The position numbers and the translations under genes are program-made. The notes beneath the pieces are model-generated. The model ran no database searches, had not been told where the DNA came from, and saw only the letters and a program-made list of their open reading frames with translations. 64,000 nucleotides of DNA, from assembly GCA_041666185.1 (NCBI GenBank), contig JBAYHL010000003.1:935-64934 (forward strand), read 5' to 3'. The stretch is from Patescibacteria group bacterium (lineage in GTDB: Bacteria; Patescibacteriota; UBA1384; UBA12157; JAENIV01). This document shows, one piece after another, positions 9,434 to 54,069 of the stretch. Each line of letters opens with the position of its first letter. Positions within the stretch are counted from its first letter, which is position 1.

Positions 9434-9489
9434 TTATGCTAAAAATGATATACTATAAGTAACTTAACTTATTTTTAAGGAGCGGATTA

Positions 9490-34700: not shown

Positions 34701-37700
34701 CTCAAACTGTGACTAATACTTTTAATATTAACGATGGCCAATGGAGCGGTTTTAATGGCGACACCTATAACAATATTAATATTAATTATACTAACGGCAC
34801 TGTTAATGGCATTTTTAAACCAGACGCAGGTGCTAATATTAATATTTCTAGCAACTGGACACAAGCGCTTAATTCCGTTTTTACTTATGGTACGAGTACA
34901 ATTACTTTTACTGGTAGCGGCAAAACTATTGGTGGAACAGCAAGCTACAGTATTTTTTATAATATAACAATAAATCCAGGTGCGTCAGTTACCAATAATC
35001 TTCCTTATGTGTATAACTTTGGTCCTAATTTTACGGCTAATGGTACCTTTACAGTTGGGGATGGTAAATATGTAGGTCTTTATTATGTTGGTGGGTCAAC
35101 GGTTTCTATCGGTGATGGTGGTTTAATTCAAGGAATTGATGTTGCCGATTCCATTTTTAACGTAGAAGATCTTGCGCCAACGGTTAATTTAACTGGTACA
35201 GGAAATTTTGGTTCTAATCTTTATTTAAGGTTTATGTTTGTCGATAGTAATGGCACACTGCCTTCTCTCAATTATAAAGCAGGAAAAGTAGAAGCTTATG
35301 GTTTATATTTTACAAGTGGTACTTATACTATCACACCAACAGCCGGGACATTAGATATTGATGGTGATTTTTCTATCATGGGCGAAGAGTACGATCAAAT
35401 GACTTCTACTATCGACTTTAATAATTCCAACAATACGACGATTAATATTGGTGGAAGTTTTTCTAGGACAGATGCCTTTGGCGTTCCTGAAATTAAATAT
35501 ACCAAGGGTACGACTGATACAGTCACTTTTGATGCCGCTGCAGGTACAAAAACTTTTGATCCAGGCACAACATCCGTTTTCAATAATCTTACTCACTCTG
35601 GTGCGGGAACTTTACAACTTGCTAATACTGCCTTAAATATTGATGGCAACTTTTCTAACTCAGAATCTGCGGGAGAATTTGATGCCAATGGTTTAAATAT
35701 TAATGCCGCTGGCAATTGGGACGTTGCCGGTGGAGGTTTTTATGCCGGGGCGACTCCTGGAACGCAAACAGTCACTTTAGATGGTGCAGGAGGATCCACT
35801 CAAGCAATTTCTGGTTCAACAACTTTTAATAATTTAACAGCAACAGCTGCTACTGCCCGGACTTTACAGTTTGAAGGTGGTCAATTAAATATGGTTTCTG
35901 GTACTTTAACCATGAATGGCGCGGCAGGACAACTGCTTTCTTTGCGCTCATCTTCTCCTGGTACTACTTGGTATTTTGCCACTTCCGGCACGCCAACAAC
36001 TTCTTATCTAGATGTTAAGGACTCCGATGCTACTTTGGGAGCAACAATTAGCGCTAGCAATTCATTAAATTCTGGTAATAATTACAACTGGAGTTTTGGT
36101 GGCGGTGTAAATTATATGTCTGGTACGGTCTATACCAATGAAAACAAATCCACCAACGTTGGTGTTGGTGTTACGGTGGCAGTTTCAGTTAACGGTACGG
36201 CTAAACAGACAACGACAACCACGGCTGGCGGAGTATTTAGTTTTAACTCTGTTGGGGTTGCCGCTAACGAAACTTTAACCTTTTTCACTGACGATGTAAC
36301 TTACAAATCAAACCTTGTTACACAAGTTTTAAATACGGTAGATGACATCACGGGATTGGAAATGTACACCGGAGATATTTCACTTCGTCACGAAACCGCC
36401 GGGCCAATAACCAACACCTTGCTTGCAACAGCTGATAATCTGGCTGACCCTAATATGTTTTTCTCGGTTGATGGTTCTAATAACGCAACTTTCTCAAAGA
36501 AACTTTGGCTAGAATCAGGTTACACTTACACGCCAGGAGGAAATGCTACGGTTAATGACAATACTGAAGTTAGATCAACTGCTACCTTAAATCTAGGTTC
36601 GTCTGGTTACATCTTAACTTTAGGTGGTACATCAGCCACACCATTAGTGGTTTCTGGGACGCTTTCAACTGGCAGTAGTTCAACTGTTAAATACACAGCT
36701 GTCAATGCCGGCGGCAATGTTAATGTGACAACTGTACCTTACAACAACCTCCAATTCACACCGGCGTCAGCTGAAAGCTACGATTTAACCGGTAATCTTA
36801 CTGTTGCTAATGCTATGACAGGGAGTCTTACAATTGATACTAACGCAACCTTTAGCACAACAGCTTCTAACTACAATGTCGCTGGGATTAATGCGACGAT
36901 CGTGGGTACTTTAACGCCAAATGCTTCAACTATTACTCTTTCCGGTAACTGGGATTCGTCGACAGGGACTGTTAATATGACTGGGAATACTTCGACCGTT
37001 GAAATTACCGGTAATAGCTCAATTAATGGTAAAAGCTGGGTTAATACTTTTTATAATCTAAAAACAGCTTATACCGACAAAAATGTTAGCTGGACAAATA
37101 ATAGTGCCATAATTAATCAGCTTACGTTGATGGGGACCAATCCAAGTACCTCTCATATTACTGGAGTTGCTAGTCAATATGGTCCTAATTTGAATGTTAG
37201 CGGGTCTAATTTAGTTGTTTCTAACGGTGCCAATATGGTGAACTTGACAATTCTTTATACTGGTTCGGGAGCAACGACTATTACTCCCGGTACTTTTTAC
37301 TCTATTTTGGCGGTTGCTCCATCTTCATCAACTCAGACTTTAGGTGGCGATGTTACCTGTGATTATGTTAGAGTTTTTGGTTCTTCTGGGCAAACAGCCA
37401 CATTGGATTTGAATGGTTACACCTTAAATTCTGTTTCAAGCACTGGTTTTAACCAAATTGGTTGGGATGGTGACAACACGCGTTATGGCAAAATTATCAA
37501 TAGCTCTCAGACAACTGACGCGACAATTAATGCTAATGGCGGTGGTAGTGGTGGTATAAAAATTAGTACCTCCAATACAGGTGGTAAAAATATTCTTGAT
37601 GCCAGCGGCGTTGGTCCTGCTAATCATACGATTAATGTTAATATGGCTGGTAACTGGACGAATAACGATCAATTTATATACAGTAATTCAACAGTTAAAT

Positions 37701-40700
37701 TTACCGGTACGGGAGCGATCGACAATACTGCTAGTTGGGGTGATAACAATAAGCGTATGCACAGCCTAATCATTGAAGCCGGTGCTGGTACGGTGACTCT
37801 AACAAACGGAGCCTATTTAATGGGCACAGGAACTTTAACTTTAAATAGCGGCATTCTTACTGGTAATAAAAATATCTATGTAAATGCATTTAATGGGTCG
37901 TATGTTAATAACGGTATTAGTAATTTTGGCGCCTCAAAACCAGTTATTACCATGATGGTTAGTTCGACTAACCCAGCTTCGCCAGATATTATCTCTGGGG
38001 CTTCAGCAACCTATCCTTATCCTTATCTAGAAACCCGTGGCGGAATTAGCAGCGCGACTGTTTATGGCAAAATGGGTGGCAATATCACCAGCTCTAGTTT
38101 TACTATTGCCCCTTGGCAAACTAACGATACCTTAGAAGTTGACACCGACAATTATTCTATTACTGTTAACGGTTGGATGTTTGTTGGCGCTAACTGGGCA
38201 ACTTCCCATGCCTCAATTTTGAATGCTCGTCACTCAACAATCACTGTTACTGGTGAAGTTGGTATATATTCTCACGATACTAATCCTACTCCAAGCGAGC
38301 TTCGTTTTGATGACACTGGTGGTAGCCTTTCGGTGATGGGCAATTTTAACTTTGATACTGCAGGTGGCTCAGTAAGAGGCATTTTCACACCAGGTCACTC
38401 AACAGTTACCTTTAATGGAGCCAATACCCAAGCCATTATCGGTGCCAACACTTGGTATAACTTAACGATTGCCAATACTGCTGGTTCACCAAGCGACACT
38501 TACGACGTTGATCCAACGGCGGCTCAAACAGTTACTAACACTTTCAATATTAACGACGGTCAATATAGCGCTTTTAATGGTGACAGTTACAATGACATTA
38601 ATATTAATTATACCAGTAGTACTGTTAAGGGTATATTTAAACCAGATGCGGCAGCAAGTGTTACTGTTTCTGGCAACTGGTCTCTAGCAACTAGCGCTAC
38701 CTTTACTTATGGTACAAGTACAATCATCTTTACTGGTAGTGGTAAAACTATTGGGGGGACGTCGCTTAGTTGGTCTCTTTATAGTCTCGTAATTAATCCA
38801 GGCGCTTCTATTACAAGCAATACAGCTTATATATATGTTTATGGCACTACTTTTACAGTTAATGGTACATTTAGTGTAAATAATATAAGTGTTTATGCTC
38901 CTACTGTTACGGTCAACAGTACCCTGACTGTTGGTGATGCTAAGATGTTGTATTGGTCGAACTCTAACCAAACGCTTAACATTGGTGACGGTGGCTTGAT
39001 TCAAGGAGTCGATGTTGCAGATTCTGTGTTTAGAATAATTGGTGACGCAACACCAACTATCAATTTAACCGGAACGGGAAATTTTGGTTCCAGTCTTTAT
39101 TTACAGTTTATGATTTATTATGGTGATTTAGCGCTGCCTTCTTTAAATTATCAAGCTGGTAAGGTTGAAGTGTTTGGCTCTTTTGCATTTGAAAGTATTG
39201 TTCATAATATTGTACCAACAGCTGGAAATTTAGATATTGATTGGGACCTTAGTATCAAATGTGAATTGATATTTGGAACGGGCACTCCTACTATGAATCT
39301 TTATAACTCCAATAACACACCCATTAATATTGGTGGAAGTTTTACAAGGGCAGAGATTGGTGCTGTTGGTGCCATTGCTAAATACACTAAAGGCACAACT
39401 GACACGGTTACTTTTGATGCTGCTTCTGGGACAAAAACTTTTGATCCAGGGTCATTATCTACCTTCAATAATGTTACTCACTCTGGTGCAGGAACACTTC
39501 AGCTTGCTAATACTGCTCTAAATGCTGATGGTAACCTTACTAACTCTGCCGGAACTTTTGATGCTAACGGTTTAAATATTAATGTCGCTGGTAACTTTGA
39601 TATTTCTGGTGGGTCATTTTCTGCCGGAACTGTTCCTGGAACCCAAACAGTCACTTTAGATGGTGCGGGAGGATCTACTCAGGCAATCTCTGGCTCAACG
39701 ACCTTTAATAATTTGACGGCGTCAGCAACGGCGGCTAGAACTTTACAATTTGCGGCTTCGTCAACAACCGCTGTTTCTGGTACTCTAACAATGAATGGCG
39801 CGACTAGTCAACTGATAAGTTTACGCTCATCATCTTCTGGCACTGCTTGGAATCTTAACGCCACTAATGCGCCAACTCTTACCTATGTTGATGCCCAAGA
39901 TTCTAACGCTTCTGGTGGAGCGCTAATTACTGCTAATAACTCTAACGACTCTGGTAATAACACAAATTGGACTTTTGGCGGGGGAGTAACCTATATTTCC
40001 GGGACAGTCTATACAAATGAAAATAAATCCACCAATGTTGGTGCCGGTATCACTGTGGCGATCTCTGTTGATGGTGAGGCTAAACAAACAACCACGACGA
40101 CAACTGGTGGAGTCTTTGCCTTTAATTCTGTTGGTGTTGCCGCTAACAATACTTTAACTCTCTTTACAGATGATGTTACTTATAAAGGTAACTTAATTAC
40201 TCAAGTTTTAAATACCACCAACGACATTACTGGTTTAGAAATGTATACCGAAGATATTGTTATTCGTCATGAAACTGTAGGACCAATGACCAATACCTTA
40301 CTTGCAACAGCGGCTACCCTTGCCGATCCCAATATGTTTTTCTCGGTTAGTGGTGGCAACGCGACATTTACGAAAAAACTTTGGTTGGAAAGTGGCTTTA
40401 ATTACACATCGGGAGGGCAGGCATCAGTCACCGACTTAGAGACAAGAGGTACTTCGACTTTTGCTCCGCAAGCTAATAGTGTTTTTGCGTCTGGTAACTG
40501 GACAATCTCGGCGACTGGAATTTTGACAACTTCAGGAACAATTGATTTTACTAAATTATCTGGGACACAAACATTAAACTCTGGTGGTACTGATTCAAAT
40601 CATCAGCTTTATGGTCTTACTCACTCTGGTGCTGGTACTTTACAATTGACTTCCAATGCCATTGTTGAGAATAATACCTTTACTAACTCTGATGGCACTT

Positions 40701-43700
40701 TTGATACTAATAACTTAAATACATTTTTCCTTGGTGATTGGAATAATACTGGTGATGCGATTTATTCTAGAGGTAGTGGTATTTTAGATTTTGTTGGTAC
40801 TTCGATTATTACTAATACTTCAACTAATGCAGAAAGTTTGGCAGGTGTTATTATTATTGGGACTGCTACTCTTAACTCTAATCTGACAATTCAGTCAGTT
40901 ACTGGTTCAGGTACTTTAAATCTTGGTAGTGGTTCGTACACCCTTACGGTAACAAGCACTGGATCAGGTTTAGGCGTGACCAATTTCAACAAAGGTACTG
41001 GTTCAACAGTTGTTTTTACTGGTACTGGTGCCAGTGTTAACATTGCTACTTTTGCTTATAATAATTTAACTTTGTCACCGGCAACATCGGCAACTTACAG
41101 TTTAACTGGTAATCTTACGGGTGCCAATGCTATGAGCGGCAATCTTACTATTAATACTAACGCGACTTTAGACCTGCGGCCTTCAACAACCGATTATAGT
41201 CTGACGGCAGTTAATGTGACTGTTGGCGGAGTTTTGGATGCTGGCAGTTCGTCGTCTACTGTTACGGTTGGTGGTAACTGGGATGTTTCTACTGGTACTT
41301 TCACAAGGGGAACCAGCATAGTTGCTTTCACTGGGAGTTCGGCTTCTATAAATTGTGGTGCTGCTTATTGGAACAATCAGTTTTGGACAATCAACTTTCC
41401 TTCAGCCGGAACAACAACTACTACTTTAACGAATTCTATTTCGGTCAGAAATACTTCTTTAGGAAGTTCTACAAATACAATTACTAGTGCAACCAATTTA
41501 TCTATTGAGGTTTGGAACAGTGGTACACCGGTAACTAATAATAACGCTGTTTTAAGTAATGTTCAGCTAACATATAACGCAAGTGGGGCTACTAATGTGG
41601 CCGCCGGAAATTCTTTTGGTAATGTTAAGTTTTTTTCAGATACCAATAGTGTTACTTACACTTTGCAAGGTGACATTAACGCCGCTGTGGTTACTGTTTA
41701 TTCCAGTAACGACAACAGAACTGCGACACTTGATTTAGATGGCCACAACTTAACTCTTTCTAGTAGTCTTTCCGTTGGTTTAACTGGGAACACTATTAGA
41801 AATGGTGTTATCCAAAATACTAATGTAACAACTAAATCGACAATCACGTCAACCGACCTAACAATCTATAACGGTGCCGGTAATAACAAGATTTTAGCTA
41901 ATGGCACTCAAACTATTGACTTCAATGTTGCTGGCAACTGGACCAATTCTGACACATTTACTGCTGGTGCTTCGACAGTGACTTTCAATGGCACGACAAC
42001 CCAAACTATCACTGGCGCTAATACTTGGTACAACTTAACCATTGCTAACACCTACGTGACCCCAAGTGACACTTATGACGTTGACCCAACGGCGGCTCAA
42101 ACTGTTACTAACACTTTCAATGTTAACGACGGGCAATACAGCGCTTTCAATGGTGACAGCTACAATGATATTAATATTAATTATACCAGCAGCTCCGCTA
42201 AGGGTATTTTAAAACCAGACGCGGCGGCGAGCATCACTGTTTCTGGTAACTGGACATATATGTCTGGTGCTACTATTACTACTGGCACAAGTACATTCAC
42301 CTTTACTGGTAGTGGTAAGACTATTGGAGGAACTGGATCTTCATCTTTCTACAATTTTGTAATTAATCCAGGGGCATCTATTACAGGTAATGCAACCTCT
42401 TTATATGTGTACGGTCCAACATTTACAGTTAATGGCACATTTAACATTAATTCTGTATATTTTTATGGTGCTACCCTCACAGTTAATAGCACATTAACTG
42501 TTGGAGATGGAAAGATTTTTTATTGGTCATATCCAGACCTAACACTTTCTATTGGTGATGGTGGATTAATTCAAGGAGTAGATGTTAATGATTCTATATT
42601 TGAAATAAGCAATGATTCAACGCCTACTATTAATTTGGCTGGAACAGGAAATTTTGGTTCTAATCTTTATTTGCAGTTTTATCTTTATTCTGGCAGTCTT
42701 TCTATTCCTTCCTTGCATTACCAAGCCGGTAAGGTTGAGGTATATGGTTCTTTCGCGTTCGAAAGTTCTACTCACACTGTTGTACCGACAGCTGGGACAT
42801 TAGACATTGACGGAAATTTCAGTCTTAAAAGTGAGGTTTTCATTTCAGGTACTCCTGTTATTGACTTCAATAACTCCAATAATACGACTATTAATATTGG
42901 TGGAAATTTTTCCAGAACAGAGATAGGGGGTGCTGTTGCTAAATACACTAAAGGTACAACCGATACAGTTACTTTTGACGCTGCTTCTGACACAAAAACT
43001 TTTGATCCTGGTTCTACCTCAGTTTTCAACAATGTTACTCACTCTGGTGAAAGTACTTTGCAGCTTGTTAATACTAATCTAAACGTCGATGGCAACTTCA
43101 CTAATTCGGCTGGTACTTTTGATGCTAATGGTCGTGATATAACTGTTGCGGGATCGTGGAGCAACACGGCTACTTTTGACAAAGAAACGAGGACAGTCAC
43201 TTTCGATGGTGGTGCAACCGGAAAAACAATTAATGGTGGTGCCTCCGGATTTTATAATTTAACAATCAATGGAGCCGGTGGAGGATGGACTTTAGATACT
43301 AGTAACTTAACCACTGTTACAAACATTAGCATTAATTCCGGAACATTAAACACTGGCACTCTTTCTCTGGGAACAGCTTCCAGCACGGTTTTGAATGTTG
43401 ATGGAGGAAACTTAAATGGTGGAAGTAACACAATTAATGCTAAAACTTTTAATGTGTTAAGTGGTGCTTTTGTGTCTGGTAGCGGGCAAGTTAATTTAGG
43501 GACAAACTCGTCTTGGGGTTATTATGGACACACTAGCGGAACCGCTGATTGGACTACTAACAACACAACACTTTATATCTATTCAAATAGTGAGAGGACT
43601 TTACCTCCAGATACGTATCATCATCTTACCTTAGCAGCTGTTATAATTCCTTTTTCTGGTGATCCAATCTATAGTTTAACCGGGGCAACTGTGTTGGAAG

Positions 43701-46700
43701 GGAATCTAGAGATTTTAGGAGTTACTGGTCTTTCTTCGGCGCAACTTTCTGTTACCAGTAATGATTTAACTGTTTACGGTAATTTAACTATCGGTGATGT
43801 GGCCACTCTTTCGGCGACGACAGCTAATATTTTAGTTGGTGGTGACTGGACTAACTCCAATACGTTTACTCCTGGTACTTCGATAGTTGATTTTACTAAA
43901 TCGGTTGGTGCTCAGACATTGAACTCGGGTGGTACTGGGACAGGCAAAGCCTTTAACAACCTTACTCACTCAGGGGCTGGAACTCTTCAACTTTCAACTA
44001 ATGCAATTAATATTGATGGTAATTTTACAAACTCTAATGGGGTTTTCAATGCCAATGGTTTAAACGTTAATGTTGCTAAAGATTGGAATATTTCTGTCGG
44101 TTCTTTTTCTGCAGGAGCAACCCCAGGTGATCAAACAGTTACTTTTGATTCAACTAGCCCAACAGTAATTTCTGGTTCGACAGATTTCAATAACTTAACC
44201 ATGGATGCTTCGGTTGATGGAGCTAAAACTATTACCTTTGAAGCTGGTTTTGTCCAGACAATCGCTGATGGAAAGACTTGGGATCTAAATGGTGGCAGCG
44301 GTAAGGTTTTAACTCTTCGTAGTTCAATACCTGATACTGCTTGGGAATTTGTAATTCCAGCTGATATGACTTCAGGGGAGTATATTGATGTTAAAGACAG
44401 CCAAAATAATACCAATGAGTTTAGAATTACACCTGGAGCAAATTGTATTGACTCTGGTAATAACGTTCCTGGTTGGTTGTTGTTCCCAGATGCGCCGACA
44501 ATTGGCACTCCACAAGCAATTTCGACAACGGCTGTTCGTTGGACATTTACAGACACTTCTTACAACGAAATTGGTTTTAAAGTTTACGATGCAGGCGATA
44601 ATTTGAAGGCAACTTGCCCAGGCGTGGATTTGACTTATTGCGATGAGGTTGGACTTTCAACAAACACTCAGTACTCTGGTCGCTACGTTGTTTCTTACAA
44701 CATGGCTGGTCAATCATCGCATTCAGGTACAGCGGCTTCAACTTACACTTTAGCCGACACGCCTTTAGCGCCAACCCTTCAGCAGTCATCTAGTACCTCT
44801 CTTAAGGTGATCGTCAATGTTAATGGTAACCCTTCTCCAACTCAATTTGCTATTTCCAACGAAAGTTTGGGTAAATATGTCCAGGCCGATGGCAGTAATG
44901 GCGATACCGCCGTTTGGCAAGATTATGCTACTTGGGGTGGAGAAAATGGTATTACCAACACTGGTTTAGTTCATTCAACAAATTATACTTATAGAGTTAA
45001 AGCTAGAAATGGCGATAATATTGAAACGGCAGTTTCTCCGTCGAACTCAGAGACGACACTGTCCCAAGGTCATGGTGACAAGCCTCCTTCACCGACACTA
45101 TCATCAACAGAGTCGCCAACAACATCTCCGGGCGCAACTCCTTCAGGTGGGGTAACAACGTCTCCAGGCGCAAGCCCTGTGCCAACTTCTTCGTCGGCCG
45201 ATGTTCAAGCGCCAACCGTGCCATCGAATTTACGAGCAACTAAGCTAGGAGCGATTACCTTAACTTTAGCTTGGGATAGTTCTTCAGATGACATTAGTGT
45301 TCAAGGGTACGAAATTTATAATCCTACTACCAATATTTTAGTTGGCACAACAGCAAATAACTTCTTTGATTTTTCAGGGCTTTTACCTAACACAACTTAC
45401 AAGTTTTACGTTCGGGCTTTTGATGGCGCTAACCATTACAGTCCAAACTCGGAAGTTTTAACGATTACTACCTTGGAAAGTCGTACAGAAGAGGAAAAGG
45501 CGATTGAAAAGCAGGGTGGGGTAGTTGCCTTCTTGATTATGGGTAATATGCCGCAATCAAGAAATGCCGGACAAAGTTTCCCAGCAGTTAAACTAACAGC
45601 CGCTGATGTTGGTGGTAATGTAGTTAAAGGCTACGATAAATCAGTTTATTTTACCTCTAGCGATACTCAAGCCAAGCTAACTTATGATGAATCTCATCCT
45701 TATACATTCCAAAGCTCCGATAATGGTGTTCATACATTTGCCCCTCGTGATTTTATTCTCAACACTCCTGGTCGTCAGCAAATTGCCGTAAGTGATAATT
45801 CAACAAAATCAACGGCTGAAATTCAAGTGAATTCGACAACTTCGGCGGTTTTACAGCGATCAGCTATTTATGTTGCAGGATTCTTAAATAGTCCTGAACA
45901 GGTTTCTAAGGCAAATCTAGTAGTGGCAGTTTTGATTGCCGGCGCTTTGCTTATGCCAACACTGGTTAATGCTTTTTCTAACGTAAATAATTTATGGCCA
46001 CAGCTTATTTATGGGTTTACTTATCTTTCGCAAATGCTTGGCCTTTCTAAGAGGCGACGTAAAACTTGGGGAGTGATTTTTAACTCTCAAACTGGTCAAC
46101 CAATACCATTTTCAATAGTAAAACTTCTTGATAAGAATAATCATTTAGTAGAGCTTGCTATTTCTGACAAGCAAGGAAGATACACTTTTGCTATGAAAGA
46201 GGGTACTTTTACCTTGAAAGTAAGTCGGGCTGATTTTGTTTTTCCTTCAAGTGAAAAGGCATCTAGTTTTTACGAGAAAGTTTACACTGGTTCAGAAATT
46301 AAAATTGCCGATGTAAATCAAAGCATTTTCTTTAACATACCTCTTGATCCACACGCCAAATCAACGTTTGGCTTAGGTTTGTGGATCTTTGTCATCAGAT
46401 TAAATCATTTTACTCAACAGATTCGTTTACCGCTTTTTGCTTTAGGAATGATTTTTGCGATTATGATGTTGGTGATTAATTTTAATCCGGTTTATATTAT
46501 CTTCTTAGCATTTTGTGCCCTGATGATTGTTCTTGATGTTACGCGCTTTGGGAGGGTTGTCGCCGCAGGTATGGTCTCTGACACCTACTCACGTCCTTTA
46601 CCTAAAGCGATTGTTCGTATTTACCATAAAGAAGATAACCGATTGATTAGCACGGATATTTCTAATAAATCTGGTCGGTTTAAGTTTAAAGTAAATCCTG

Positions 46701-46831
46701 GAGTTTACTATCTTGTGGCGACAAGACCACAATATGTTGATTTTAAAACTCACCTTATGTATCTTGAAAAAGATCAGAAGAAGGGGATTGCCACATCGAT
46801 TAATATTGAGCTTAGAAAAGAAACAAAGTAG
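28775..46831 (+). CDS. Giant cell-surface protein (6018 aa). N-terminal signal anchor, very long T/G/N/S-rich beta-helix-like repetitive region built from about 3.5-kb super-repeats, two FN3 domains, an Ig-like region, and a C-terminal cassette of CarboxypepD_reg-like domain, TM helices and a second such domain.
   Basis: Uninterrupted 18-kb ORF with RBS aggagggg. Motif N-L-T-H-S-G recurs. FN3 at PSNLRATKLGAITLTLAWD...YKFYVRAFD. C-terminus KRRRKTWGVIFNSQTGQPIPFSIVKLLD..., hydrophobic helices, then a second similar domain. Confidence 0.8.
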   Translation: MNQDEVNEAKSLDAEISKITKSTRATVPAMTPLHDILRQKYPWYYRWHLNPLSKVVHTLVLGLWIVLVTGTVVYSNVYQAPTAKAAADFTCTWDGTTGNWSDTAKWGGCNSEYPGQTGTTTYDVSIPSGSVTLDVASVDITAAGTTAGDISVVGTLNTNGNALTLHSMLVDTGGTLVAGISTFTVKSNWNHSAGTFIHNTSTIAMTGATGSITTGTDLKYVYNLTTTTAGQTITFANRTGIKGVLTVGNASSAVTLNGNQLIDLYDNTTPLSLTGLYSITSVQMTFRATSPLSIPAATYGVVYIFLNATNTISLSGTTTFSALDIYSAVDSATSTLDTAGYTVNTVNLSIGSASGTSHCGKFIANNSTVNVSGNVLIRACGAGTAELDAGSSTINVGGDYTNNSTFTASTSTINFNKTSGTQTLTSGGTGTGKLFNNLTHSGAGILRLATNDIDVNGTFTNSAGTFDADTNDKSMNFAGAWNNTGSATFSRGSGMLYFDGATTLTDSSSNAGDLGVVYITPTCVLTLGSNAKMTSVTSVVFLGNLNMGSGNTLTLTGTGTPMSWFDTTTFQKGTNSTVTYTGTTTATNVATVAYNNLTLTPTAATTYSLAGNLTGASAMSGNLTINANATLNTTTSNYGISTINLTINGTLSANASAITLSGSWNSTTGHYNRTSGSSGSHVTMTGTTGTASINFNPADFWTSTTSFNYLEINAPGNTVTLSSDITFWYDCQLNLQSGTINGSRYITFAYPNNSSPYINTAASFGASLPTVSYIIGTSNPASPTIVSSEIYPNLTITTGSACPAGTECYAKLSSGISANNLIVSGQTGKKATLNADIHDISVGNALIMGTAGGYYGELDINSSLTVNNYVSIVNSGVAFSNKLVAGTGTSISVANDFMNYDTFEAGTSTITFNGSTTNRGITTNGDAFYNLTIDGAGGGWIAQSAVNVTHDFNITNGTFDLKSGSNYALNVGNDFIGNNGTWTFEMRASTITVSGNWNTSAKAWDSTNNNALKTGTSTVVMNGTGTKTITTGVTNAWESRFYNLTVGQSGNTTSLAQAVGTDGVLTVGTGTFSIATDKTIYLKKPTGDVLSLDPAAVLVGVGTGHLSLHSNGTSGTLNLPAHTYDMSIWLSGGGFTVAQTGDVIINGNLMVNGDQQASRVANYNTGNHSLTISGNLQVGYNTTTYDANKTFTAGSSTVTVGGNMTQYGILTAGSSTFDFNSASSRTLDSGGTGANQTFNNLTHSGNNTLQLVTNSININGNLTNSAGEFDANGLNVDVAGNWDVAGGGFYAGATPGTQTVTLDGAGGSTQAISGSTTFNNLTATTATARTLQFAAASTTVVEGVLTMDGAAGQLLSLRSSSSGSWWYFGTLNPAETSYLDIQDSDASLGATNTANTSNDSGNNQNWVFGGGVTYISGTVYTNENKSTNVGAGITVAISVNGGAKNTITTTAGGVFSFNSVGVAANNTLTIFTDDVTYKSNLVTQVLNTVDDITGLEMYTGDISLRHETAGPLTNTLLATADNLADPNMFFSVDGSNNATFSKKLWVESGYNYTPGGNVTVNDSTEIRSLATLNLGSSGYILTLGGTSATPLVVSGTLSTGSSSTVKYTAVNAGSNVSVVATPYNNLQFSPASAESYDLAGNLTVANAMTGSLTVDANATLNTYVGTTSYNISCVNGTVNASGTLYAGANGSTGTSTFTASGNWDTSNGTFTYGTSTVVLTGTANLGAGSSASHSLYNLTMTTPGQIVTLSSIATKVYGTFTVGSTSGAKVTLQRGGGNAWFYLYNNTTPLVFNGTYNGSPGYNIDDLNTVYNPTLDTSFVGGHFGNLYFTCNNKTITLANAVTATGNLFIYSSNSTYRSTVDTASNAVTAGTLNLGQASYTSNYATLLANASTITAANVVIRTGALANNILNAGSATINVSTNWTNADTFTAGTSTVNFNGTTTQTITGANTWYNLTIANTAGTPSDTYDVDPTAAQTVTNTFNINDGQWSGFNGDTYNNININYTNGTVNGIFKPDAGANINISSNWTQALNSVFTYGTSTITFTGSGKTIGGTASYSIFYNITINPGASVTNNLPYVYNFGPNFTANGTFTVGDGKYVGLYYVGGSTVSIGDGGLIQGIDVADSIFNVEDLAPTVNLTGTGNFGSNLYLRFMFVDSNGTLPSLNYKAGKVEAYGLYFTSGTYTITPTAGTLDIDGDFSIMGEEYDQMTSTIDFNNSNNTTINIGGSFSRTDAFGVPEIKYTKGTTDTVTFDAAAGTKTFDPGTTSVFNNLTHSGAGTLQLANTALNIDGNFSNSESAGEFDANGLNINAAGNWDVAGGGFYAGATPGTQTVTLDGAGGSTQAISGSTTFNNLTATAATARTLQFEGGQLNMVSGTLTMNGAAGQLLSLRSSSPGTTWYFATSGTPTTSYLDVKDSDATLGATISASNSLNSGNNYNWSFGGGVNYMSGTVYTNENKSTNVGVGVTVAVSVNGTAKQTTTTTAGGVFSFNSVGVAANETLTFFTDDVTYKSNLVTQVLNTVDDITGLEMYTGDISLRHETAGPITNTLLATADNLADPNMFFSVDGSNNATFSKKLWLESGYTYTPGGNATVNDNTEVRSTATLNLGSSGYILTLGGTSATPLVVSGTLSTGSSSTVKYTAVNAGGNVNVTTVPYNNLQFTPASAESYDLTGNLTVANAMTGSLTIDTNATFSTTASNYNVAGINATIVGTLTPNASTITLSGNWDSSTGTVNMTGNTSTVEITGNSSINGKSWVNTFYNLKTAYTDKNVSWTNNSAIINQLTLMGTNPSTSHITGVASQYGPNLNVSGSNLVVSNGANMVNLTILYTGSGATTITPGTFYSILAVAPSSSTQTLGGDVTCDYVRVFGSSGQTATLDLNGYTLNSVSSTGFNQIGWDGDNTRYGKIINSSQTTDATINANGGGSGGIKISTSNTGGKNILDASGVGPANHTINVNMAGNWTNNDQFIYSNSTVKFTGTGAIDNTASWGDNNKRMHSLIIEAGAGTVTLTNGAYLMGTGTLTLNSGILTGNKNIYVNAFNGSYVNNGISNFGASKPVITMMVSSTNPASPDIISGASATYPYPYLETRGGISSATVYGKMGGNITSSSFTIAPWQTNDTLEVDTDNYSITVNGWMFVGANWATSHASILNARHSTITVTGEVGIYSHDTNPTPSELRFDDTGGSLSVMGNFNFDTAGGSVRGIFTPGHSTVTFNGANTQAIIGANTWYNLTIANTAGSPSDTYDVDPTAAQTVTNTFNINDGQYSAFNGDSYNDININYTSSTVKGIFKPDAAASVTVSGNWSLATSATFTYGTSTIIFTGSGKTIGGTSLSWSLYSLVINPGASITSNTAYIYVYGTTFTVNGTFSVNNISVYAPTVTVNSTLTVGDAKMLYWSNSNQTLNIGDGGLIQGVDVADSVFRIIGDATPTINLTGTGNFGSSLYLQFMIYYGDLALPSLNYQAGKVEVFGSFAFESIVHNIVPTAGNLDIDWDLSIKCELIFGTGTPTMNLYNSNNTPINIGGSFTRAEIGAVGAIAKYTKGTTDTVTFDAASGTKTFDPGSLSTFNNVTHSGAGTLQLANTALNADGNLTNSAGTFDANGLNINVAGNFDISGGSFSAGTVPGTQTVTLDGAGGSTQAISGSTTFNNLTASATAARTLQFAASSTTAVSGTLTMNGATSQLISLRSSSSGTAWNLNATNAPTLTYVDAQDSNASGGALITANNSNDSGNNTNWTFGGGVTYISGTVYTNENKSTNVGAGITVAISVDGEAKQTTTTTTGGVFAFNSVGVAANNTLTLFTDDVTYKGNLITQVLNTTNDITGLEMYTEDIVIRHETVGPMTNTLLATAATLADPNMFFSVSGGNATFTKKLWLESGFNYTSGGQASVTDLETRGTSTFAPQANSVFASGNWTISATGILTTSGTIDFTKLSGTQTLNSGGTDSNHQLYGLTHSGAGTLQLTSNAIVENNTFTNSDGTFDTNNLNTFFLGDWNNTGDAIYSRGSGILDFVGTSIITNTSTNAESLAGVIIIGTATLNSNLTIQSVTGSGTLNLGSGSYTLTVTSTGSGLGVTNFNKGTGSTVVFTGTGASVNIATFAYNNLTLSPATSATYSLTGNLTGANAMSGNLTINTNATLDLRPSTTDYSLTAVNVTVGGVLDAGSSSSTVTVGGNWDVSTGTFTRGTSIVAFTGSSASINCGAAYWNNQFWTINFPSAGTTTTTLTNSISVRNTSLGSSTNTITSATNLSIEVWNSGTPVTNNNAVLSNVQLTYNASGATNVAAGNSFGNVKFFSDTNSVTYTLQGDINAAVVTVYSSNDNRTATLDLDGHNLTLSSSLSVGLTGNTIRNGVIQNTNVTTKSTITSTDLTIYNGAGNNKILANGTQTIDFNVAGNWTNSDTFTAGASTVTFNGTTTQTITGANTWYNLTIANTYVTPSDTYDVDPTAAQTVTNTFNVNDGQYSAFNGDSYNDININYTSSSAKGILKPDAAASITVSGNWTYMSGATITTGTSTFTFTGSGKTIGGTGSSSFYNFVINPGASITGNATSLYVYGPTFTVNGTFNINSVYFYGATLTVNSTLTVGDGKIFYWSYPDLTLSIGDGGLIQGVDVNDSIFEISNDSTPTINLAGTGNFGSNLYLQFYLYSGSLSIPSLHYQAGKVEVYGSFAFESSTHTVVPTAGTLDIDGNFSLKSEVFISGTPVIDFNNSNNTTINIGGNFSRTEIGGAVAKYTKGTTDTVTFDAASDTKTFDPGSTSVFNNVTHSGESTLQLVNTNLNVDGNFTNSAGTFDANGRDITVAGSWSNTATFDKETRTVTFDGGATGKTINGGASGFYNLTINGAGGGWTLDTSNLTTVTNISINSGTLNTGTLSLGTASSTVLNVDGGNLNGGSNTINAKTFNVLSGAFVSGSGQVNLGTNSSWGYYGHTSGTADWTTNNTTLYIYSNSERTLPPDTYHHLTLAAVIIPFSGDPIYSLTGATVLEGNLEILGVTGLSSAQLSVTSNDLTVYGNLTIGDVATLSATTANILVGGDWTNSNTFTPGTSIVDFTKSVGAQTLNSGGTGTGKAFNNLTHSGAGTLQLSTNAINIDGNFTNSNGVFNANGLNVNVAKDWNISVGSFSAGATPGDQTVTFDSTSPTVISGSTDFNNLTMDASVDGAKTITFEAGFVQTIADGKTWDLNGGSGKVLTLRSSIPDTAWEFVIPADMTSGEYIDVKDSQNNTNEFRITPGANCIDSGNNVPGWLLFPDAPTIGTPQAISTTAVRWTFTDTSYNEIGFKVYDAGDNLKATCPGVDLTYCDEVGLSTNTQYSGRYVVSYNMAGQSSHSGTAASTYTLADTPLAPTLQQSSSTSLKVIVNVNGNPSPTQFAISNESLGKYVQADGSNGDTAVWQDYATWGGENGITNTGLVHSTNYTYRVKARNGDNIETAVSPSNSETTLSQGHGDKPPSPTLSSTESPTTSPGATPSGGVTTSPGASPVPTSSSADVQAPTVPSNLRATKLGAITLTLAWDSSSDDISVQGYEIYNPTTNILVGTTANNFFDFSGLLPNTTYKFYVRAFDGANHYSPNSEVLTITTLESRTEEEKAIEKQGGVVAFLIMGNMPQSRNAGQSFPAVKLTAADVGGNVVKGYDKSVYFTSSDTQAKLTYDESHPYTFQSSDNGVHTFAPRDFILNTPGRQQIAVSDNSTKSTAEIQVNSTTSAVLQRSAIYVAGFLNSPEQVSKANLVVAVLIAGALLMPTLVNAFSNVNNLWPQLIYGFTYLSQMLGLSKRRRKTWGVIFNSQTGQPIPFSIVKLLDKNNHLVELAISDKQGRYTFAMKEGTFTLKVSRADFVFPSSEKASSFYEKVYTGSEIKIADVNQSIFFNIPLDPHAKSTFGLGLWIFVIRLNHFTQQIRLPLFALGMIFAIMMLVINFNPVYIIFLAFCALMIVLDVTRFGRVVAAGMVSDTYSRPLPKAIVRIYHKEDNRLISTDISNKSGRFKFKVNPGVYYLVATRPQYVDFKTHLMYLEKDQKKGIATSINIELRKETK
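32340..43200 (+). repeat. Intragenic super-repeats within the giant gene. Block A (about 1.4 kb) lies at about 32380, 35480, 39380, with partial copies at 42950 and 43880. Block B (about 1.05 kb) lies at about 34560, 38390, 41950. Block C at about 30000-30680 repeats at about 40560-41180.
   Basis: Example: 32622-32760 and 35722-35860 are near-identical DNA, with 2 mismatches in about 115 bp. Peptide ANTWYNLTIANTAGTPSDTYDVDPTAAQTVTNTFNINDGQ occurs three times. Peptide SGTVYTNENKSTNVG occurs three times. Confidence 0.85.
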
Positions 46832-46952: not shown

Positions 46953-48437
46953 TTAATAATGAATGTAGACCGGTGTACCAACGTCATCCCAGTTAAAGAT
47001 CCATTCAGCGTCAGAAGTGGCCATATTAACACAACCATGAGACATTGGGTGACCAAAATTACTGTGCCAATAGGTACCATGAATAGAATAATCACCAGAA
47101 AACCAACTAATGTAAGGAACACCTGGTAGATAGTAGTCAGGTCCATCCATTAAAGCTGCACGATCTTTACCATAAACACTAAATTCGCCTGTAGGAGTCG
47201 CGTAACCGCTTTTACCAGTCGAGACTAAGAACTGGTTAACCAAAGTGCTGCCTTCGAAAGCGTATAAAGTTTGTTCAGAAAGATTAATATCAATATATTT
47301 ACTACCATAACGACCTGGTTGAGCGTGAGGATATATAGTTTTTTGTCCTCGTGGAATAGTAGAAGTGACCATTGCAAAACTGCTACTTTGTGAGCGAGCT
47401 AAAGCGTCTCTGATTTGAGCTGTTAAGGTGTCAGTATCGACTCCACGGCCATCTTGGCCCTCGGAAATAACATTGCCAGTACCATCTTCAACTTCACGAT
47501 CAGTGGCAGGAACTTCAACTTGCTCGGCTACCCAATTAACAAAAGCATTTGGTGAAATGGAAGTAGCAAGTTTATCACCATCTTCATTAAATTTAATCCA
47601 AGAGCTGATTTCTCTGCTTCCTGCTGACCAAGAAGAGGTGTCAAAAGTCACGGTAATAGGCGCAGCCGTGAGATATTTTTCTGCTTGAGATTTGGCTTCA
47701 GTAGTGCCCTCGTCGTTTATAGCTGGTTCTAAATCGGAAGTTTGCATAACAATAGATCCTGAAATATTACCAGAATTAATAAGGGCAGTTAAATCATTCT
47801 TTAATTGATCCTTATTTAACCCGCGGCCTTTTTCAGAAGGAGTAAGGTTAACTTGACCATTTTCAATTGAAAGAGTTGCATTTTTTGGTTCTTTTTCGAC
47901 AACAGAAGATAATTGTGATAAATACTCATTAAACTTTACTTCATCAATTTGAGGTTTAATCTCTAAAACAAAACCACTAATTGCTAATTGATAATTTTCT
48001 TGTAATTTTTCTTTAAGACTCTCTCCACGGCCATAATTAAAAGCTTGGTCTAAAATTTTATCTGTATCAAAAGTAATTCCCATCTCAGAAAGGGTAGGTT
48101 TTACGGTCTGATCGTTATAAGTGATTTCTGGACCATTATTTTCTAAAATTTTAATTTTTTCTTCAACTTGGGTTTTAGCTTGTTCGTGAGTTAGGCCGCC
48201 AACTTTAATGCCGGCAACCATTACCTTAGGGTAAATTTTATCAGCGTAAGCACGATTAAAATACCAAACACCGCTGATTAGAGTAGTAATTACCAAAAAA
48301 CTTATACCAATTTTAATATAAGTTTGTTTAGAAATTACCAAAGATTTCTTTTTGGTTGTAGCTTTTGATTGTTTAGTTTTTGTTTTACCACTAGGCAAAA
48401 TGTTTAATTTTGTCGCGGTAGTTGTTAAGTTGTTCAT
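46953..48437 (-). CDS. L,D-transpeptidase (YkuD family), membrane anchored
   Basis: C-terminal YkuD domain with the catalytic ...SHGCVNM... motif. N-terminal TM helix. Confidence 0.8.
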   Translation of the reverse strand: MNNLTTTATKLNILPSGKTKTKQSKATTKKKSLVISKQTYIKIGISFLVITTLISGVWYFNRAYADKIYPKVMVAGIKVGGLTHEQAKTQVEEKIKILENNGPEITYNDQTVKPTLSEMGITFDTDKILDQAFNYGRGESLKEKLQENYQLAISGFVLEIKPQIDEVKFNEYLSQLSSVVEKEPKNATLSIENGQVNLTPSEKGRGLNKDQLKNDLTALINSGNISGSIVMQTSDLEPAINDEGTTEAKSQAEKYLTAAPITVTFDTSSWSAGSREISSWIKFNEDGDKLATSISPNAFVNWVAEQVEVPATDREVEDGTGNVISEGQDGRGVDTDTLTAQIRDALARSQSSSFAMVTSTIPRGQKTIYPHAQPGRYGSKYIDINLSEQTLYAFEGSTLVNQFLVSTGKSGYATPTGEFSVYGKDRAALMDGPDYYLPGVPYISWFSGDYSIHGTYWHSNFGHPMSHGCVNMATSDAEWIFNWDDVGTPVYIHY

Positions 48438-48477: not shown

Positions 48478-48552
48478 GTTTTAAGGTATCTGTTTTTATG
48501 ACATTAAGACAGTATATCAAAAAAATCGTCTTCTGTCAAGATGGAAGACGAA
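48478..48552 (-). promoter_or_regulatory. Consensus promoter TTGACA-17-TATACT and conserved leader for ldt (minus strand). The -35 lies in the loop of the tRNA operon terminator CGTCTTC...GAAGACG.
   Basis: On the minus strand: TTGACA (plus 48534-48539), 17-nt spacer, TATACT (plus 48511-48516). The leader is nearly identical to the one at 50732..50790. Confidence 0.55.
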
Positions 48553-48555
48553 AAT

Positions 48556-48589
48556 TGGTGCGCGGAGCAGGATTCGAACCTGCAACCGG
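48556..48589 (-). pseudogene. tRNA 3' fragment (variable region, T-arm GCAGG-TTCGAAT-CCTGC, acceptor 3' strand, CCA) lacking a 5' half
   Basis: Minus strand reads CGGTTGCAGGTTCGAATCCTGCTCCGCGCACCA. No complementary acceptor 5' strand or D/anticodon arms lie upstream. Confidence 0.5.
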
Positions 48590-48615
48590 GCGTGTATGGT
48601 TATCTTTTTTGCTTT

Positions 48616-48690
48616 TGGTGGGCGCGGATGGATTCGAACCATCAACCGATCGGATATAAGCCGATTGCTCCGCCGTTGAGCTACGCGCCC
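48616..48690 (-). tRNA. tRNA-Ile with anticodon TAT (UAU), CCA encoded
   Basis: Acceptor GGGCGCG/CGCGCCC. D-arm GCTC-AACGGCG-GAGC. Anticodon stem ATCGG/CCGAT with loop CTTATAT. T-arm GATGG-TTCGAAT-CCATC. Discriminator A, then CCA. Confidence 0.7.
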
Positions 48691-48733: not shown

Positions 48734-48762
48734 ATTTTATCCTGTTTTTCTAATAATTTCAA
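48734..48762 (-). promoter_or_regulatory. Promoter for the minus-strand tRNA-Ile transcript (TTGAAA-17-TAAAAT on the minus strand)
   Basis: Plus strand shows tttcaa at 48757-48762 and atttta at 48734-48739. Confidence 0.35.
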
Positions 48763-52045: not shown

Positions 52046-52120
52046 CGCGGGGTGGAGAAGTAGTATCTCGTCAGGCTCATAACCTGAAGATCAGCGGTGC
52101 AATTCCGTTCCCCGCTACCA
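52046..52120 (+). tRNA. Initiator tRNA-fMet (anticodon CAT), CCA encoded
   Basis: Close similarity to bacterial tRNA-fMet. CGCGGGG acceptor with an unpaired 1:72 position (C:U). Anticodon loop CTCATAA. Confidence 0.7.
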
Positions 52121-52170: not shown

Positions 52171-52245
52171 GGCTGAGTAGCTCAGTGGTAGAGCGAGGTC
52201 TTCATAAGGCCGAGGTCGCAGGTTCGAATCCTGCCTTAGCCACCA
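52171..52245 (+). tRNA. tRNA-Met (anticodon CAT; elongator type by acceptor similarity, but an Ile2/lysidine tRNA cannot be excluded)
   Basis: Acceptor GGCTGAG/CTTAGCC (one G:U pair). D-arm GCTC-AGTGGTA-GAGC. Anticodon loop TTCATAA. T-arm GCAGG-TTCGAAT-CCTGC. Ends ACCA. Confidence 0.65.
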
Positions 52246-52275: not shown

Positions 52276-54069
52276 ATGAATATAAATTTAAAATCAAGTT
52301 GTTTTCGAAATATTTTTTATTTAATTACTGTTGTTGTCTTTGCCTTAATTATTTATTCTTTAGTTGTGCCACTCAACCGCTCAGAAACAAAAGAAGTGCC
52401 AGTTTCTCAAATTGCTAAAGAGGTGAGTGATAATCAAGTTTCTTCTATTACGGTTGATCAAAATCAAATAACTGCTAAGTTAAAAGACGGCACAGAAATT
52501 AAATCTTATAAAGAATCCGGAGTCGGTCTAAAAGACTACGGTATTACCTCCGACAAGGTGAGTATTGATGTTAAAAATCCTGATCGAGGGAATTTTTGGT
52601 CCTCATTTTTATCAATTATTTTACCTTTTCTTTTGATTGGCGGTATTTTATATTTTATGCTTCGTCAGGCCCAGGTTGGCAACAATAAGGCTATGTCTTT
52701 TGGTCAATCGAGAGCCAGACTTTTTACCCCAGGAGCTAAGAAAACTACATTTAAAGATGTTGCTGGTCTGATTGAGCCAAAACAAGAGCTACAAGAAGTA
52801 GTAGAATTTTTAAAAACCCCAGCTAAATTTAAAAGTCTTGGCGCAGAAATTCCTAAAGGTGTTTTGCTAGTTGGTCCACCAGGTTGTGGTAAAACACTTT
52901 TAGCCAGAGCGGTTGCCGGAGAGGCTAATGTGCCATTTTTCTCAATCTCTGCTTCTGAATTTGTCGAAATGTTTGTTGGGGTTGGGGCTGCAAGAGTTAG
53001 GGATTTGTTTTTAAAAGCTAAAAGAAATTCCCCGGCAATTTTATTTATCGATGAACTAGATGCCATTGGGCGACAACGTGGGTCAGGTCTTGGTGGTTCT
53101 CATGACGAAAGAGAACAAACTTTAAACCAAATCTTGGTTGAAATGGATGGTTTTGAAACAGATACTCGGGTAATTGTTATGGCAGCAACCAATCGGCCAG
53201 ATGTTTTAGATCCGGCTTTACTTCGACCGGGTCGGTTTGATAGACGAATTGTCATTGACCTACCCGATATTAAAGAAAGAGAAGCAATTTTAAAAATTCA
53301 TTCTCACGGCAAACCTTTTGCCAAAGATGCTGATTTAGAAAAACTTGCTCGCTCAACCGTTGGTCTTTCAGGAGCTGATTTAAGAAATGTTGTTAATGAA
53401 GCGGCTATTTTAGCAGCTAGAAATGGCTTAAAAGAAATCAGACAAGATGAATTAAATTCATCGATTGAAAAAGTTATTCTCGGACCAGAGAGAAAATCAC
53501 ATCTTCTTTCGGAGCAAGAGAAAGAAATTTCCGCCTTTCATGAGGTAGGCCATGCAATTATTGGCAAAAGTTTACCTAACTGCGATCCTATTCACAAAGT
53601 TTCTATTGTTTCTCGCGGAATGGCTTTAGGGTACACTTGGTCTTTACCAACAGAAGATAAGAAACTTTATTCAAGAGCTAAGTTCCAAGATGAAGTCGCT
53701 CAATTATTGGGTGGTTATGTAGCCGAAAAAATAATTTTTGGTGATGTAACAACCGGTGCTCAAAACGATTTAAAGAGGGCAACACAAATTGCTCGTGATA
53801 TGGTAATGGTTTACGGAATGTCAGATAAAATTGGGCCAATTGTTTTAGGTGAAAAAGAAGAAATGATCTTTTTAGGCCGAGAGATTTCCGAACAAAGAAA
53901 CTATTCAGAAAGCAAAGCTGCTCAAATTGACGAAGAAGTAGCTAAAATTATTACCGATGCGCAGAAAGTGGCGGCAAAGATTTTACAAAATAAAAAAGTA
54001 TCTTTAAAAAGAATAACAAAAGATTTAATTAAATTGGAAACTATTGAAGGCGACAAGCTAAAAATTTAA
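52276..54069 (+). CDS. ftsH: ATP-dependent zinc metalloprotease FtsH
   Basis: Walker A GPPGCGKT, second region of homology (SRH), and HEVGHA zinc motif. Confidence 0.9.

Follow-up and report, generated by a model that had tools for sequence, protein, structure and literature searches.

In this study, we found that a 64-kb stretch of DNA, referred to below as the window, carries a tRNA-Ile gene with a UAU anticodon, and, as far as sequence can tell, this tRNA most likely stands in for TilS and Ile2(CAU) in a CPR bacterium of the Berkelbacteria-like clade. Descriptions of TilS usually present it as essential and as found in nearly all bacteria, and its replacement by a tRNAIle(UAU) has been reported as a rare exception. 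The preliminary description of the window had already read the gene as a sign of lysidine-independent AUA decoding. This reading is supported here, as the anticodon itself, the Met identity of the two CAT tRNAs, the empty tilS slot upstream of ftsH, the kinship of the tRNA with Ile2 tRNAs and the use of AUA codons all agree with it.

Genomic Context and Host

By its sequence, the window belongs to the chromosome of a Patescibacteria (CPR) bacterium that is closely related to Candidatus Berkelbacteria. When FtsH was searched against one genome per prokaryotic species, the top matches were all Patescibacteria (CPR), with identities ranging from 82% to 57%; the closest (82%) was a 'Patescibacteria group bacterium', and Candidatus Berkelbacteria, including the complete chromosomes CP011213.1 and OY969116.1, reached 71–77%. 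The FtsH protein of the window was also found on a contig of ENA metagenome assembly ERZ27249449. The window has about 37% GC and encodes PNPase, RNase J, FtsK, RecA, RecX, a PEP-utilising enzyme, DnaG, RpoD and FtsH, together with MurJ, a DHH phosphoesterase, the CCA-adding enzyme and LepA, and this housekeeping gene content indicates that it is chromosomal and not viral.

Two large proteins of the window deserve mention. An ORF of 6018 aa fills 18 kb (28775-46831, plus strand) just upstream of the tRNA region; its sole Pfam match is one fibronectin type III domain, and its product is probably a giant surface protein of a kind typical for CPR genomes. Large ORFs occur at the matching position in three related loci (L006, L007, and L008). 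In addition, a 1607-aa protein at 1205-6028 on the plus strand has BNR/Ycf48-like, Big_1 and carboxypeptidase-regulatory-like domains and is probably extracellular.

The tRNA-Ile(UAU) Gene and Its Anticodon

48616..48690, minus strand: tRNA-Ile(UAU) gene, 75 nt, CCA encoded (ARAGORN; Rfam RF00005; covariance model R1)
48656..48658, minus strand: anticodon U34-A35-U36, TAT on the minus and ATA on the plus strand (sequence and cmscan structure line)

ARAGORN predicted five tRNA genes in the window, one of which is tRNA-Ile(tat) at 48616-48690 on the minus strand, with the sequence GGGCGCGTAGCTCAACGGCGGAGCAATCGGCTTATATCCGATCGGTTGATGGTTCGAATCCATCCGCGCCCACCA, in which CCA is encoded. The preliminary description had claimed a tRNA-Ile with a UAU anticodon at this place; ARAGORN returned the same coordinates and placed the anticodon identically, with no one-nucleotide shift of the loop, so that only the strand (minus) has to be added. 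In Rfam cmscan, RF00005 (gathering score 29) matched 48619-48690 on the minus strand with 68.4 bits (E 8.8e-13), the model being covered entirely (1-71) with zero non-canonical pairs. The anticodon stem AUCGG/CCGAU is perfect in 5/5 pairs, and the anticodon loop is the 7-nt CUUAUAU, with A at position 37 and U at position 38. Because a perfect 5-bp stem closes a 7-nt loop, the UAU anticodon is unambiguous and a shift is impossible. The tRNA also has the discriminator A73, U12-A23 and C4-G69, and with 96.7 bits it was the best scorer on covariance model R1, which was built from 14 UAU tRNAs (that of the window and those of the related loci described below).

Kinship and Conservation of the UAU tRNA

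Clustering of CAT, TAT and GAT tRNAs separated the initiators and the elongator Met tRNAs from a group in which the TAT tRNAs were mixed with the 'GGG...' CAT tRNAs of tilS-bearing loci. When the anticodon was masked, the nearest non-UAU tRNA was of the Ile2(CAU) type for 14/14 UAU tRNAs, with 67–89% identity, the comparison set consisting of CAT- and GAT-anticodon tRNAs, with GAT represented by one aberrant tRNA only. On the UAU covariance model, most Ile2-type CAT tRNAs scored 82–90 bits, interleaved with the model's own members (84–97 bits), and the Met elongators scored 62–81 bits, most of them below the Ile2-type tRNAs. The UAU tRNA is best seen, from these comparisons of tRNA bodies, as an Ile2 gene with T for C at position 34; an origin from tRNAIle1(GAU) is the possible alternative. 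The sole tRNA-Ile(GAU) call in the fetched loci, at L035 13579-13656 on the minus strand, has the loop CAGAUUA with A33 and U37 and may be mis-called or aberrant.

For the 14 orthologues, RNAalifold recovered the cloverleaf, with 21/21 pairs kept in every sequence and compensatory double changes in 13 of the 21 pairs. The stretch C32-U33-U34-A35-U36-A37 (CUUAUA), A73 and U12-A23 are invariant in all 14, and C4-G69 is present in 13/14. The set A73, U12-A23 and C4-G69 is the identity set of E. coli IleRS. As judged from its fold and conservation, the window tRNA-Ile(UAU) is a real, conserved and functional tRNA.

Position 38 behaves differently in the two types of tRNA: it is U in seven, C in three and A in four of the 14 UAU tRNAs, and A in 14/14 Ile2(CAU) tRNAs of tilS-bearing relatives. 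In E. coli, A38 belongs to the identity elements of IleRS. Along the FtsH tree, position 38 of the UAU tRNAs switches repeatedly. Its change may point to altered recognition or decoding tuning, or to a lost TilS/IleRS constraint.

The tilS and ftsH Neighbourhood in Relatives

52276..54069, plus strand: ftsH, the synteny anchor (TIGR01241, 796 bits)
52046..52120, plus strand: initiator tRNA-fMet(CAU) with a C1/A72 mismatch (ARAGORN; cmscan pair 1-72 non-canonical)
52171..52245, plus strand: elongator tRNA-Met(CAU), grouping with Met elongators and apart from Ile2-type tRNAs

The comparison set consisted of 80 FtsH-anchored loci from species-representative genomes, in which tRNAs were called by ARAGORN and TilS was searched with an in-house HMM built from ORFs with the signature SGGxDS...HxNHxLR; five of these signature ORFs were confirmed as TilS by NCBIfam TIGR02432, with scores of 176–198 bits (cut-off 93.6). 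Among the related Patescibacteria loci, 26 have a tilS gene that ends 0–850 bp upstream of ftsH (HMM E 1e-92 to 1e-130). Half of them (13/26) also carry a third, Ile2-type CAT tRNA with a body beginning GGG, and a TAT tRNA occurs in 0/26. A second arrangement is shared by the window and 13 loci (L006-L009, L011-L014, L016, L026, L038, L042, and L065), with tRNA-Ile(TAT) 3–9 kb upstream of ftsH, the fMet and Met tRNAs directly upstream, and tilS absent; in the window, the slot upstream of ftsH is occupied by the two Met tRNAs only. Eleven further loci share the fMet/Met-ftsH order, their upstream sequence being usually too short to judge, and three clade members with 5–10 kb upstream of ftsH (L003, L005, and L017) have no UAU tRNA in that stretch.

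Every clade member for which enough sequence is available has an empty tilS slot. The TilS HMM found nothing in the 64-kb window (best E 2.4), and with filters off and all ORFs of at least 30 aa included, it detected no relic in the window or in any UAU-bearing locus. In a neighbour-joining tree of FtsH, a single gene, every UAU or no-tilS locus falls into a single clade, and every tilS locus falls outside this clade. The canonical pair of TilS and an Ile2-type CAT tRNA is thus represented by neither member in the window, and by both in the corresponding region of 13 related loci. In about 20 further loci from Patescibacteria, with the order tRNA-Leu(UAG), ftsH, tRNA-Val(GAC), no tilS and no Ile tRNA lies within 10 kb of ftsH, and because of them the local absence of tilS is not by itself proof of its loss.

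We also ran a TilS profile search of a protein database. Among the 120 of 562 matches listed, the TilS of the Kazan complete genome ranked first, the other named matches were from 'Patescibacteria group' or other bacteria, and none was named Berkelbacteria, although most matches carried no name; this is a weak sign that Berkelbacteria lack tilS.

The preliminary description had taken the other CAT tRNAs of the window for initiator and elongator Met, and the C1/A72 mismatch, the clustering and the R1 scores bear this out. The tRNA at 52046-52120 groups with initiators and reached 38 bits on the UAU covariance model. The tRNA at 52171-52245 groups with those Met elongators that tilS-bearing loci have alongside separate Ile2-type CAT tRNAs, and it scored 73.0 bits on R1, against 75–90 bits for Ile2-type CAT tRNAs. 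No Ile2-type CAT tRNA was found within the 64-kb window by ARAGORN, clustering or R1.

A separate observation concerns the tRNA-fMet of L005 (JBEKTP010000004.1, 9424-9708, plus strand), the anticodon loop of which is interrupted by a group I intron at 9446-9650 (Rfam RF00028, 60.1 bits, gathering score 50). ARAGORN missed this tRNA because the intron splits it. Intron-split tRNAs therefore occur in the clade, and an Ile2(CAU) tRNA split in this way would escape ARAGORN.

Use of AUA Codons

The long ORFs of the window contain 185 AUA codons, which amount to 10.7 per 1000 codons and 14% of Ile codons, and at least one AUA is present in 26/26 ORFs of at least 150 aa, including ftsH, recA, rpoD, dnaG and lepA. 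In the ftsH genes of the clade, 120 AUA codons align with I, V and L of outgroup FtsH at 37, 20 and 20%, respectively, like ATT and ATC, and ATG codons align with M at 44%. The frequency, the spread over ORFs and the alignment to I/V/L indicate that AUA is a regular Ile codon that needs an efficient reader, so that the codon frequency check proposed in the preliminary description shows AUA to be normal and frequent. Clades with and without tilS differ little in AUA usage (GC-adjusted difference about -2.6 percentage points of Ile codons), so that AUA usage adds no signal on tilS status.

Elements Flanking the tRNA Gene

48734..48762, minus strand: promoter-like site TTGAAA-17-TAAAAT, about 45 nt upstream of the tRNA 5' end (consensus scan, 10/12)
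48556..48597, minus strand: 3' relic of a second tRNA-Ile(UAU)-type gene, 42 nt, 18 nt downstream of the intact gene
48518..48551, minus strand: terminator-like hairpin with an 8-bp stem and a 10-nt loop, then AUUUUUUU (RNA fold -9.6 kcal/mol, z = -2.98)
48539-48511, minus strand: promoter-like site TTGACA-17-TG-TATACT with 11/12 consensus matches, facing the L,D-transpeptidase gene
46953-48437, minus strand: L,D-transpeptidase gene, downstream of the tRNA unit

By its match to the consensus, the TTGAAA-17-TAAAAT site is a candidate promoter for tRNA-Ile(UAU), and the hairpin at 48518-48551 is predicted from its fold to be a terminator-like end of the tRNA transcription unit; the terminator scan made no call here because its loop limit is 8 nt. 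The loop and 3' arm of the hairpin contain the second promoter-like site, which gives a compact terminator/promoter overlap at 48511-48551 on the minus strand.

The relic between the gene and the hairpin spans A35 of the anticodon loop ('AUAC'), the T arm, the acceptor 3' strand and A73-CCA, and its 5' half is absent. Its best full-length local alignments were to the 3' parts of tRNA-Ile(UAU) from L007 (35/42) and L042 (34/42), to which it is closer than to the intact gene beside it, and other isotypes align with it from the T arm onward only. This suggests gene turnover or replacement at the tRNA-Ile(UAU) site. Rfam made no tRNA call on the 42-nt relic, and the 'Plastid-ycf2' Rfam matches at this position were rejected as antisense tRNA look-alikes far under threshold.

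Distribution Beyond the Clade

A generic UAU-tRNA pattern, which matches 12/14 of the clade tRNAs, was run on metagenome and viral collections and gave at least 120 matches in metagenome contigs and at least 120 in viral contigs. UAU-anticodon tRNA genes are therefore not rare in environmental and viral DNA. The preliminary description had called a UAU anticodon rare; this holds for the published surveys of complete bacterial genomes (17 genomes) but not for these two collections.

In 29 of the 120 metagenome contigs listed, ftsH adjoins tRNA-Ile(UAU). A frequent order on these contigs (L083-L202) is ftsH, tRNA-Ile(UAU), tRNA-Val(GAC), as in L190 (7714-9770), L113 (8001-10030), L120, L108 and L170, and it mirrors the order tilS, ftsH, tRNA-Ile2(CAU), tRNA-Val(GAC) of Moranbacteria-type loci (L032, L034, L049, L052, and L062). 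The TilS HMM found nothing in the 240 scan loci (the matches listed), among them 16 with an ftsH-adjacent UAU tRNA and at least 2 kb upstream of ftsH. The FtsH proteins of these metagenome contigs form a second large cluster apart from the Berkelbacteria-like clade, and since this cluster has tRNA-Ile(UAU) with no tilS upstream, the trait is present in at least two Patescibacteria groups. From these gene orders, tRNA-Ile(UAU) without tilS is apparently common in Patescibacteria; the single-gene FtsH tree cannot say how many times the trait originated. No IleRS gene was found in the window or in about 320 loci, the class Ia synthetases found being ValRS, LeuRS and MetRS.

Discussion

Considering the above results, we regard it as likely that tRNA-Ile(UAU) is the host's reader of AUA, that it derives from Ile2(CAU) by a C34 to U34 change which made TilS dispensable, and that tilS has been lost in the Berkelbacteria-like clade. 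In the model that we propose, the C34 to U34 change in the Ile2(CAU) gene would have made TilS unnecessary, and tilS would then have been lost from its place upstream of ftsH. Transcription of the tRNA gene, on the minus strand, would start at the promoter-like site of the gene and stop at the hairpin and U-run, as the consensus and fold matches suggest, and the transcript would be matured with its genome-encoded CCA. t6A at A37 is probable, as in other tRNAs reading ANN codons, and charging with Ile would be carried out by an IleRS tolerant of U34, either one with Arg at the position of E. coli W905 / M. mobile R865 or one of the eukaryote type. On the ribosome, U34 would pair with the A of AUA, and the reading of AUG could be limited by competition from tRNA-Met(CAU), by the ribosome itself, as happens in Mycoplasma mobile, or by a modification of U34, all three being candidates. 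We infer four parts of this model: the loss of tilS from the genome as a whole, the specificity of IleRS, how the tRNA is modified, and how AUG is discriminated against.

A different explanation, which we consider unlikely, is that decoding is redundant, with tilS and tRNAIle2(CAU) encoded elsewhere in the genome and the UAU tRNA serving as an extra AUA reader, an arrangement that has been proposed for Lactobacillus casei, Cyanothece and Ferrimonas. Double systems do exist, for example in Lactobacillus casei and Cyanothece (PMC3575796), the sequence read is 64 kb, about 7%, of a genome that is itself probably about 0.9 Mb, and tilS is not always beside ftsH in Patescibacteria. However, the UAU tRNA has the appearance of an Ile2(CAU) counterpart and not of an additional gene, and the slot of tilS is empty throughout the clade where sequence suffices. 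Moreover, tilS and a TAT tRNA were found together in none of the 80 genome loci and 240 scan loci (the latter being the matches listed), and the lack of a match named Berkelbacteria in the TilS profile search (among the 120 of 562 listed) argues weakly in the same direction.

The UAU tRNA could also be an accessory gene from a phage or mobile element that supplements AUA decoding outside the core system, which appears very improbable. In its favor, tRNA-Ile(UAU) is very common on viral contigs (at least 120 matches), and the adjoining truncated second copy is the kind of scar left by recombination at tRNA genes. Against it, the 6.5 kb around the gene have no match among 50,697 phage records, housekeeping or cell-envelope genes flank the gene on both sides with no integrase or phage gene seen nearby, and the closest viral tRNA among the matches listed is only 85% identical to that of the window. 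The place of the gene relative to ftsH is also kept in 13 diverged relatives, and the stem covariation is typical of vertical descent. Finally, a pseudogene or mis-called tRNA, for example a decayed Ile2 gene whose anticodon mutation was neutral because AUA is unused, has nothing but the adjoining relic fragment in its favor and is scarcely credible, its refutation following from conservation and codon usage, given the 68.4-bit Rfam score, the perfect cloverleaf with encoded CCA, the absence of any broken pair, the CUUAUA loop invariant across 14 orthologues, and the presence of AUA in every long ORF at Ile/Val/Leu positions.

The replacement of TilS/Ile2(CAU) by tRNA-Ile(UAU), which we favor, has precedents in several bacteria and archaea. 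Taniguchi et al. (2013; PMC3575796) reported nine species from three clades that lack tilS and have tRNAIle(TAT), and in Mycoplasma mobile it was shown that U34 is unmodified, that A37 carries t6A, that Arg865 of IleRS gives specificity for UAU, and that the ribosome blocks reading of AUG (PMC3575796). Like the host of the window, M. mobile is a bacterium with a small reduced genome, TAT in place of Ile2(CAT), and AUA as a frequent Ile codon; it lacks tilS, as the host does in the region covered by the window. U34, IleRS and the ribosome have been studied by experiment in M. mobile, whereas the window system is described from its genes. Here, in addition, the trait belongs to Patescibacteria and extends across a deep clade instead of a few species, and position 38 is U, varying among U, C and A.

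The tRNAscan-SE 2.0 survey (PMC8450103) listed 17 bacterial genomes with 'Ile3-TAT' for Ile2, all of Bifidobacterium adolescentis, Mycoplasma or Neorickettsia, and such cases are still called rare in a 2026 preprint. Bifidobacterium adolescentis and Neorickettsia have tRNAIle(UAU) but neither Ile2(CAU) nor tilS (PMC8450103 File S5; PMC3575796), and the same holds within the window; these bacteria carry a eukaryote-type IleRS that has been suggested to accept UAU (PMC3575796). The Ile3-TAT trait arose by independent losses in separate phyla (PMC3575796; PMC8450103). The canonical system of TilS and lysidine-modified tRNAIle2(CAU) is kept in sister Patescibacteria of the Kazan, Moranbacteria and Peregrinibacteria types, which share the Met tRNAs, the ftsH neighbourhood and a homologous tRNA body with the window, whereas the window has T instead of C at position 34 and lacks tilS upstream of ftsH.

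A tRNAIle(UAU) that suppresses a tilS deletion in Bacillus subtilis demonstrates that one anticodon mutation to UAU suffices in the absence of TilS (Fabret, 2011; Kohrer, 2014, PMC3919564). That suppressor was recruited in the laboratory from tRNAIle1(GAU), whereas the window tRNA has an Ile2(CAU)-like body and its change would be ancient and natural. The tRNAIle3(UAU) of Nanoarchaeum equitans and Korarchaeum cryptofilum (PMC8450103) also belongs to ultrasmall or episymbiotic lineages and replaces a modified-cytidine system, as here, but in another domain, where the enzyme replaced is TiaS (agmatidine) and not TilS. In the searchable literature, we found no paper that connects Patescibacteria, CPR or Berkelbacteria with tilS or lysidine. 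The class of mechanism is therefore known, and that literature does not appear to describe the lineage or how widely the trait occurs within it.

A broader proposition, for which we see evenly balanced prospects, is that lysidine-independent AUA decoding is common and ancient in large parts of Patescibacteria, comprising all of the Berkelbacteria-like clade and one or more additional large clusters, with in-place C34 to U34 conversion of Ile2, complete loss of TilS, and an undescribed solution for charging the UAU tRNA and avoiding AUG, by IleRS, the ribosome, U34 modification or position 38. The paired orders (tilS, ftsH, Ile2(CAU), Val(GAC) and ftsH, Ile(UAU), Val(GAC)) are unusually direct evidence of how such a switch happens. 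If these readings are true, TilS would no longer be a safe 'universal bacterial' marker or drug target for Patescibacteria, and annotation pipelines that expect fMet, Met and Ile2 CAT tRNAs would under-score the completeness of these genomes. This strategy has so far been reported from a few bacterial genera, and here a whole branch of the ultrasmall CPR bacteria seems to have switched. If a class-level CPR clade and other Patescibacteria do live without TilS, they would constitute a natural experiment in dozens of diverged lineages, in which one could study how a U34 that could wobble onto AUG is handled by IleRS and the ribosome.
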